A stretch of DNA of 64,000 nucleotides from a virus (taxonomy: Duplodnaviria > Caudoviricetes). Of the stretch, positions 60,001-63,000 are shown piece by piece (position 1 is the first letter of the stretch; every line of letters begins with the position of its first letter). Position numbers: made by a program. The DNA is taken from the IMG/VR virus record IMGVR_UViG_3300019742_000001; one strand, given 5' to 3'.

Positions 60001-63000
60001 GTTTTAAGGGTTTTGTTTATCTCAAAAATGATCTGTTGTGCCCGACGAATACCAAACCCTGACAACTGTGAAATTTCAATTTCATCAAGATCATAAACCT
60101 CTTTGAGTGTCGTAACACCTAGTTTTTTAAGGGTTACTGCAGTGACATTTTCACATCCAAGTTTGGTAAGAAAGTGTTCTACAACTTGTGTGTCACGGTC
60201 TTCACATACTGGAGCAACACATACAAGATCAACACCTTTCCATTGTAACAATGAACCACAAGACGGACATGATTTGTTTTTGTCAGTGATTTCAACGGAT
60301 TCCAACACAAAATCAATGTATGGAATTACATCACCTGAACGATAGATCCCTACTCTAGCACCAATATCAATACCATTATCTATAACAAATTTTGCATTAA
60401 ATCCTGTTGAGTTTGATACCGTTACCCCACCAATTTCTGTTGGGTCAATATTTACAACAGGAATAACACGACCTGTACGACCAACTTGCCATGTTACCCC
60501 AACAACATTACAGATGGTAGCATCTTCGTTTACTTTGAAGGCAACCTTGTCATCAGGATAATATGTGTCTTCACGTTGACTGTCATTACGGACAATTACA
60601 ACACCATCAATGTCATAGTTGTTTTCTTCTTTCCATTTCCTAAGAAGTGTTACCAGTTGTTCGTCTGTCTTTTCATCATCAACAACACTAGGTGCAAGTG
60701 GTAATCCAAGTTCTTCCATTTGCCAAATTCTGGTCATTTCATCATTGAATTCTGGATTAAATCCAATCTGTTCTACTAATTCATAGAACAATACAACCAA
60801 ATGTTCACACTGTTCTTCACCGTCACGATTCAGTATCCCAGCAACTCCATTTCGTCGTGTCTTATATCCAAGATCCTTGTATACATCACCAACCAACATT
60901 ACTTCTGCACGATATGACCCTGTTACTGGTTTGTTTAATTTTTGCGGTACTGCCTGTACCAACTTAGTAGTAATATCAGTACCATATGTTCCGTCACCCC
61001 TTGTTAATGCACGATTGTATTCACCATCTACATATTGAACCAAGGCAGACACACCGTCTAATTTTGCCCAATAAACCTTATCACCTGAGACTTCTGACAA
61101 AAAGTTCTGACAAGTTCCATCGGATTTAACTTTTGTTAATGAACCAAGAATGAATGGAAGTTCAACCTTCTGACCATCTACTGACGCACCTACAATATTA
61201 TTATAACTATTGTCTGGATACAATAACCGAAACCCTGTTTTAAATGCATCATATTCAAAGTCAGATATTGATGGTGTTCCTAGTTCATACTCCCTATCAA
61301 ATTTCCGTAACCCTTCAACCATTTGTGTTTCAGTCATATAATAATCCTTTAATATTCGATGAATGGACCAAAATCAATCAGTCGATCAAGATGTTCCCAC
61401 ATTTTAATCTCAGTTTCGTGGAATTTATCACTTTCTTTCATTTCTGACATGAGAGTTTCCTTGAAATATGGATACTCTTTGGCATACATCATGAACTTTT
61501 CTTGACTATCATGTGTAGTCATTGTGATGTTGGCAATCCGATCACCTAACTTCACCATACGAGCAAAATGATCCTTTGCCAAGATAGGATATGTGTTTTC
61601 TTGACGTTCTTTTCTGTTTCGACCTCGTTTGTCAGTAACAAGATATGTCAACTCAGCAACACGATCACCAAATTCATCGTTAACATCTTCATATACTACC
61701 TGTGTATCTTCAATAGTATCATGTAACCAAGACACTACAAGAATCAACTCTTCAAAAACTCCAAAGGTCATCAAAATGTTATAGACATCGTTCAAATGTT
61801 TTGTGTAGGCATATCCACCGTATGTATCACCGTCATGTGCCTTAGTGGCAAACTTTTTAGCATCTAATAACATTTTGATTCCCTCTCAATGAAGTTACAG
61901 TATAAGTGATGATTCGTTTTCAGTCAAGGATTTTACTGCCTCAGTTTCTTCAATACTCTGTCCACAGTTCATACAAATATACGAACTTCCTACTGGTGCA
62001 ATTCCAGCTTTACCTGATGGACTCATTACAGCAGACACTTTCACAAAGGTCAAAATCTCTGTAAATGCCTGACTCTTACATTGGATACACTCTACAATTT
62101 CTTGTTCTTCAATACTCATTCTTTTAAATCTCCTTCTGACTCATCATAATCTATTCTGGTATGGTAAATTCCATCCAGTTCCCTAATTAACCTACTTTGC
62201 ACCTGTCTTAATGTACCAACTTTCATTTCATCCAATTGCTCATCTTCTCTCAAACGATCAATTGTATCTTTTACTACTTTAATCTTTGACTCTGGTGTTG
62301 TCAATTTATCAGCCATAGATTTTGCTGTTGCCTCAACCGCATCAGCTATCATCAACAACGACGAATACTCAGATGATGGTTTTGGTGTGTTATACCGAAA
62401 ATGAGTCTCATCTTTACAATCGGTTTTGTTACAAATCGATTTTAAAACAGTATCTCCGTGATGTTCAATAATTACTTCCAACACTGACCTTGGAATATCT
62501 GTTTCTGCTGTCAATATCGCAATACTATCTGATATATGTCTTGTTATGATCTGATATGACATCTTTGGATCAAGTTGGTCATGTGGATTGTCTCCATTCT
62601 GATTCTCAGTAAAATAAGAAGGATTCCAAATCTTCCCTATGTCGTGATATTGAGCACAAACCTTTATGAAGGTTACATCAAGTCCGAGATCGGATGCCAC
62701 AGCCTCAACCAGACCTATTACTGCCTGTGTATGTCTGAATGTTCCGGGAGCCACAGCCTTAAACCTTTGAAGTAATGGATATTCTAAATCCAAATATTGT
62801 TTTAAATGTTCACTATCATCTGTCATACTCCCTCCATTAACTCCTTAGTTTATTCCTTAATTTCATCAACCGTGAACAGAACTCCGTTGTGGTCAATATG
62901 GTTTCATTTTTCTTCCTACGTCCCATCGAATGTGTCAATATCCCTGTCCCAGAAGCCAGTAGTGCCTTCCTAAAACCCTCACTATCGTCACATAATGCAT

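Follow-up and report, generated by a model that had tools for sequence, protein, structure and literature searches.

The stretch of DNA analysed here (64,000 nucleotides, hereafter the window) lies within a contig of ~239 kb from microbial-mat metagenomes, which carries T4-type genes, including gp32, RNase H, and ThyX, and a DNA polymerase with at most 29% identity to that of any deposited T4-like phage. On the (-) strand, positions 62116..62826 hold an ORF of 236 aa, open throughout and with an ATG start at 62826, whose predicted product is a stand-alone PgpH-type HD phosphodiesterase. Its upstream operon mate (62837..63286, (-) strand) encodes a complete T4 gp30.3-family protein (Pfam PF08010, positions 2-138 of 138, E = 3e-51), for which no solved relative was found by sequence. 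The gp30.3 gene ends 10 nt upstream of the HD ATG, and the gap between its stop codon and this ATG accommodates a strong ribosome-binding site: a Shine-Dalgarno-like GGAGGGAG (62828..62835, (-) strand), read directly from the sequence and located 1 nt before the start codon.

Several other genes follow on the same strand. Directly downstream, a 74-aa zinc-ribbon protein with two CxxC pairs (CxxC...CxxC; 61895..62119) starts with a 4-nt overlap with the HD stop codon; it could be a partner or a regulator of the HD enzyme, and its position is kept in the closest relatives only (L005-L009). Two genes downstream of the HD gene lies a small alarmone hydrolase of the SpoT/Mesh1-like type (61349..61873, 174 aa; Pfam HD_4, phrog_990), whose best PDB relatives are Drosophila Mesh1, Lmo0812, and the hydrolase domains of bacterial SAH/Rel proteins (E ~1e-9). 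Its probable role during infection is to remove (p)ppGpp or (p)ppApp. It is followed by an NAD-dependent DNA ligase (59538..61337) and, further downstream, by a calcineurin-like metallophosphatase (58614..59228, phrog_547), which is kept in close relatives and adds another candidate for nucleotide processing to the gene run. A terminator-like hairpin (63863..63894, (-) strand), which is a consensus match only, precedes the run of p152, gp30.3, HD, zinc ribbon, alarmone hydrolase, and ligase and is likely its upstream transcriptional boundary. As a second such hairpin (59497-59526) is found at the ligase end, the pair brackets the run from p152 to the ligase and suggests a single transcription unit of ~4.3 kb. 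Sigma-70-like sites are as numerous in the promoter scan as expected from shuffled sequence. The 64-kb window contains no detectable tRNAs and no Rfam families, including the c-di-AMP riboswitch.

The product of the HD gene matches Pfam HD (PF01966, 5.8e-12) and TIGR00277 HDIG (8.7e-14). In a phmmer search of all PDB chains, its residues 15-228 align with the HD domain of Lmo1466/PgpH (PDB ID: 4S1B) with E = 4e-37, and the second-best match, an HD-GYP protein, reaches E = 0.22; the HD domain of Listeria monocytogenes PgpH, crystallised with c-di-AMP (PDB ID: 4S1B and 4S1C), is the sole close solved relative. The AlphaFold2 model, for which 42 homologs served as the input alignment, has a mean pLDDT of 93.8 and superposes on 4S1C/4S1B with TM-scores of 0.94/0.91 and an rmsd of 1.4-2.5 A (1.4-1.5 A for the superposition with a TM-score of 0.94), while the other HD structures compared remain below 0.5 (HD-GYP: 0.45-0.5). 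The metal ligands of PgpH were described as H514, H543, D544, H580, H604, H605, and D648, with K547 as the proton donor (PMC8177086, PMC12072042). Mapped through the 4S1B alignment (offset of the chain numbering: 493), they correspond in this order to H32, H61, D62, H97, H122, H123, and D162, so that all seven are present, together with the catalytic lysine (K65, equivalent to K547); the ligands and the lysine are invariant across the 42 stand-alone homologs. Positions 62116-62826 hence encode a complete soluble PgpH-type HD domain, as the initial annotation had proposed, and the protein is very probably an active two-metal phosphodiesterase, given its ligand set and the modelled fold.

Full-length PgpH is composed of an extracellular 7TMR-HDED part, a seven-helix membrane domain, and the HD domain (PF07697, PF07698, and PF01966), of which PF01966 alone was found here. 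No membrane segment is present within the 236 residues: the top 19-residue hydropathy (1.62) lies in one of the core helices of the HD fold, a charged one. The initial annotation had described a domain devoid of membrane and extracellular parts, which holds, and had named a frameshifted transmembrane region upstream as the observation that would turn the gene into a fragment. Such a region is excluded, as no TM-like stretch occurs upstream of the HD ATG in any frame up to the end of the window (maximum 19-residue hydropathy of 1.17). Since the intact gp30.3 gene lies directly upstream, there is no space for a 7TM part; the complete neighbor 10 nt away, the strong ribosome-binding site, and the lack of TM-like stretches together indicate that the gene is not a fragment. 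An identical 236-aa protein is encoded, with the same neighbors, on nine contigs from several samples.

Homologs of similar length are abundant. A length-restricted search returned 1844 proteins of 129-413 aa, and the best 120 of these, with identities from 100% down to 44% and at least 221 bits, are 215-276 aa long except for one partial sequence of 174 aa. Among longer proteins, the best matches are classical PgpH enzymes (PF07697, PF07698, and PF01966), with 42% identity and at most 159 bits. An exhaustive search of representatives at 50% identity placed thirteen stand-alone proteins first and full-length PgpH after them. IMG/VR contributes 37 loci with strong homologs; each consists of an ORF of 231-280 aa, and the contigs reach 314 kb. 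The picture is reversed in bacteria: with one genome per species and a 16-row alignment as the query, 78 of the best 80 loci are ORFs of 476-891 aa with a C-terminal HD domain and 34-42% identity, many of them from Desulfobacterota, Myxococcota, relatives of Geobacter, Acidobacteriota, and Bacillota. Clustered at 90% identity, the stand-alone clade falls into at least 120 groups of sequences, and its members all come from uncultured phages, most of them very large; all of the contexts checked are phage contigs, many of them of 100-314 kb, and viral sequences make up 94-100% of the nearest ESM Atlas clusters. Two stand-alone homologs carry the label of bacterial MAG proteins (GCA_021737025.1 and GCA_043956595.1, one of them labelled Vallitaleaceae). 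Both contigs resemble large-phage DNA, and the neighborhoods are phage-like (endolysin, T4 endonuclease V family, methyltransferases, NAD salvage, and many small ORFs); in GCA_043956595.1, the NAD salvage set is full (NAPRTase, NMNAT-like protein, and NAD synthase).

No member of the clade was found in the existing phage collections searched. PHROGs contain no family for the HD protein, and a fold search of BFVD yielded nothing better than E = 0.02. A megablast search of the deposited phage collection with the region gave no match, and tblastn gave eight records, all UNVERIFIED, among which the stand-alone form was not found. Three of these were inspected (OR848126.1, OR846595.1, and MT835511.1, named 'Listeria phage', 'Enterococcus phage', and 'Bacteriophage sp.', respectively) and rejected as stand-alone homologs: they carry a full-length membrane PgpH of 517-735 aa of the bacterial type, which probably reflects bacterial DNA that entered the phage preparations or assemblies.

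The position of the gene is stable within one group of phages. The relatives of the ligase in IMG/VR were collected with an alignment query, as a single-sequence query gave none. Of the 17 contigs with a ligase of 39% identity or more, 13 carry the HD gene immediately upstream of it, and one of the other four has too little upstream flank; among ~63 contigs with a more distant ligase, it occurs in one. The gene is thus a near-fixed feature of one phage lineage rather than a sporadic island gene. Downstream of the HD gene, close relatives (65-69% identity) still encode the zinc ribbon, alarmone hydrolase, and metallophosphatase, while at 42-50% identity, the conserved neighborhood shrinks to the ligase and genes from the T4-like replication block; apart from these replication-block genes, no neighbor conserved throughout the clade was found. 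The alarmone hydrolase was considered as an obligatory partner and rejected, since a weak HD_4 match was present in only one of five large HD-bearing contigs.

In a FastTree phylogeny of 279 HD domains, 92 of the 96 short proteins group on one branch with support of 100, and a site-heterogeneous IQ-TREE reconstruction of 94 rows recovers the same split (SH-aLRT 100). Distant HD families were left out as an outgroup because their long branches make them unreliable; the midpoint root of the FastTree phylogeny lies on the stand-alone branch. Identity to bacterial PgpH is 34-42%, 42% at best, with a long branch in between. Judged by this topology, the stand-alone phage proteins are one old lineage and not the product of repeated recent captures. 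The comparison with bacterial PgpH, suggested in the initial annotation, therefore qualifies its idea of a captured, deregulated phosphodiesterase: a phage-borne PgpH-type HD domain with an intact catalytic set and without sensor or membrane parts is indeed present, whereas a recent pick-up from the host is contradicted by its membership of one old, separate clade.

The constraints acting on the two groups were compared column by column in 92 stand-alone and 183 full-length sequences. At 31 positions, conservation reaches at least 85% in both groups, and the residue is the same in all 31; no position is conserved with a different residue. The agreement at these jointly conserved positions, the closest subfamily, and the two-metal ligand set with the equivalent of K547 place the protein within the PgpH type. 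The phage clade shows relaxed constraint at nine positions that bacterial PgpH conserves (S33, G101, F131, G147, P148, E154, A161, R169, and H222). The alignment shows purifying selection on every position conserved in both PgpH and the phage clade, and the overall pattern is that of an enzyme which has retained its chemistry, while contacts or regulation that depended on the membrane part disappeared. The substrate of PgpH is probably also retained by the phage clade.

c-di-AMP constitutes an essential second messenger in many bacteria: it limits the uptake of K+ and osmolytes and governs homeostasis of the cell wall. PgpH cleaves c-di-AMP and not c-di-GMP (PMC8177086). Because all positions conserved in PgpH and the phage clade keep the same residue, 3'3'-c-di-AMP is favored as the substrate of the HD protein, with reasonable though far from complete confidence. 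In the infected cell, the product would be a soluble, sensor-less HD enzyme of the PgpH type that holds two metals in its active centre and hydrolyzes 3'3'-c-di-AMP to 5'-pApA, as PgpH does. Since both the 7TM domain and the extracellular part of the bacterial enzyme are absent, activity is expected to be constitutive once the protein is expressed, and the c-di-AMP pool of the host would collapse. The benefit for the phage might lie in host take-over through the loss of c-di-AMP (i.e., effects on K+ and osmolyte uptake and on cell-wall homeostasis) or in counter-defence by removing c-di-AMP as an immune signal. In Listeria, phage yield is reduced 10-100 fold in a strain that lacks both phosphodiesterases and accumulates c-di-AMP (bioRxiv 10.64898/2026.05.13.725036). 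The downstream alarmone hydrolase of this phage and its nearest relatives may be part of the same scheme: ppGpp inhibits PgpH, and CbpB/DarB connects falling c-di-AMP to rising ppGpp (PMC10243994), so that the hydrolase would remove (p)ppGpp, an inhibitor of PgpH made when c-di-AMP falls. In the candidate host lineages (Desulfuromonadales, Geobacter, and Desulfosarcina), all genomes with a full-length PgpH also carry DAC cyclases. The nine relaxed positions, the long branch to bacterial PgpH, and the restriction of the alarmone hydrolase to close relatives count against this scheme. A sensor-less, always-on c-di-AMP phosphodiesterase is the best explanation of the whole, predicted with slightly more confidence than doubt, and phages carrying the stand-alone HD protein probably erase c-di-AMP in infected cells, as far as homology and the model can tell.

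The same chemistry could serve a dedicated counter-defence enzyme, which would be directed at cyclic nucleotides of immune systems instead of the housekeeping pool: either the c-di-AMP of DancE-type CBASS or a wider range, including 3'3'-cGAMP, cUA, cA3/cA4, and cyclic mononucleotides. c-di-AMP is the signal of the type I CBASS system DancE-Cap15 (PMC13692203) and the constitutive repressing signal of PanDA/Panoptoo (PMC13640721, bioRxiv 10.64898/2026.08.10.743927), HD-superfamily phosphodiesterases were predicted as counter-nucleotide defences in jumbo-phage genomics (PMC7824862), and the gene shares its run with the gp30.3-family protein, the alarmone hydrolase, the NAD ligase, and the metallophosphatase. 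However, known anti-defence genes are usually patchy, whereas this one keeps its syntenic place within a deep phage clade and evolves in the manner of a conserved enzyme; besides, a c-di-AMP hydrolase would trigger guard systems of the PanDA type. A broad eraser of CBASS, Pycsar, or type III CRISPR signals, one of the functions considered in the initial annotation, is further argued against by the reported specificity of PgpH for c-di-AMP, its inability to cut c-di-GMP, and the absence of any change at the conserved PgpH positions shared with the phage clade. A dedicated counter-defence role is accordingly unlikely, though it retains some plausibility.

A different nucleotide as the substrate appears improbable. 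The protein might act as a phosphohydrolase on pApA or short linear oligonucleotides, 2',3'-cyclic phosphates, or (p)ppGpp/(p)ppApp, in nucleotide salvage or alarmone removal, and such a role would agree with the chemical versatility of HD domains (PMC8177086), with the binding of ppGpp to PgpH as an inhibitor (PMC10243994), with the alarmone hydrolase and the metallophosphatase nearby, and with the relaxation of the nine PgpH-conserved positions. The match is nevertheless specific to the HD domain of PgpH, as the folds of SpoT/Mesh1, HD-GYP, YqeK, and dNTPases stay below a TM-score of 0.5; the signature positions common to PgpH and the phage clade are all kept, and a separate SpoT-type hydrolase is already encoded two genes away. 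A catalytically dead binder of c-di-AMP or ppGpp would resemble the sponges with which phages often counter cyclic nucleotides, but the invariance of the metal ligands, the catalytic lysine, and the water-activating aspartate across the clade is the pattern of an active enzyme and makes this highly improbable. The gene could also have been left over from a full-length 7TM PgpH, or a phage contig could have incorporated host DNA during assembly, and the bacterial-type genes in the UNVERIFIED deposited records offer a precedent; both readings are refuted by the gp30.3 end 10 nt upstream, the ribosome-binding site, the hydropathy in all frames, the recurrence of the same protein and neighbors on nine contigs, and more than 50 relatives, all of 230-280 aa and all on phage contigs.

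The sensor-less c-di-AMP phosphodiesterase, as the preferred interpretation, touches on an active field: in work from 2025-2026, c-di-AMP also appears as an immune signal and as a guard signal against phage. What is new is a phage-only clade with a sensor-less form of the one HD enzyme known as c-di-AMP-specific. Phage sponges for c-di-AMP are already known, and a phage enzyme that destroys it has so far not been described: the DancE-Cap15 and PanDA/Panoptoo papers (PMC13692203, PMC13640721, bioRxiv 10.64898/2026.08.10.743927) contain no mention of a phage c-di-AMP hydrolase, and no description of a phage PgpH, a phage-encoded c-di-AMP HD phosphodiesterase, or an anti-CBASS HD domain was found in the literature. 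More speculatively, and with considerable doubt, the clade might constitute the first enzymatic phage counter-measure specific to c-di-AMP (only sponges being known), which would disarm CBASS of the DancE-Cap15 type and would represent the kind of natural activity that the PanDA/Panoptoo guards, which fire upon loss of c-di-AMP, evolved to detect. As a small soluble protein, it is well suited to asking whether phages manipulate c-di-AMP, for take-over or for immune evasion, and it is a potential tool enzyme for the depletion of c-di-AMP in vivo.

Among known systems, the closest are the PgpH enzymes themselves (Lmo1466 and B. subtilis YqfF/PgpH), with which the phage protein shares the HD fold (TM-score of 0.94), the ligands, and the lysine at 34-42% identity, as well as the motifs xFxENQ, NPH, HHG, YxxxKP, DxxEA, and R..Y. 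It differs from them in lacking the 7TMR-HDED and 7TM parts, in being soluble, phage-encoded, and only 236 aa long, and in belonging to a separate clade with nine relaxed positions. HD-GYP proteins (predicted in jumbo phages, PMC7824862; solved in PDB ID: 4MCW, 3TM8, and 9RBZ) likewise belong to the HD superfamily, hydrolyze cyclic dinucleotides, and were associated with the same counter-nucleotide idea, but they represent another HD subfamily (E = 0.22, TM-score of 0.45-0.5) with three metals instead of two; in place of their HHExxDGxGYP signature, the phage protein has HHG followed by D-T, without GYP. Acb1 (a 2H phosphoesterase) and Apyc1 (of the metallo-beta-lactamase fold) are phage erasers of cyclic nucleotides and would be functionally similar if the anti-defence reading holds. 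Their folds and catalytic chemistry are unrelated to those of the phage protein, an HD fold without a PHROG match, in agreement with the distinctness from Acb1/Apyc1 expected in the initial annotation, and their anti-CBASS and anti-Pycsar activities are proven. The sponges Acb4 and Acb2 (PMC13640721, PMC11722364) also lower free c-di-AMP, and PanDA/Panoptoo fire when phage sponges take it away (PMC13640721, bioRxiv 10.64898/2026.08.10.743927); these proteins act, however, by binding without cleavage, whereas the phage HD protein keeps a full hydrolytic centre.
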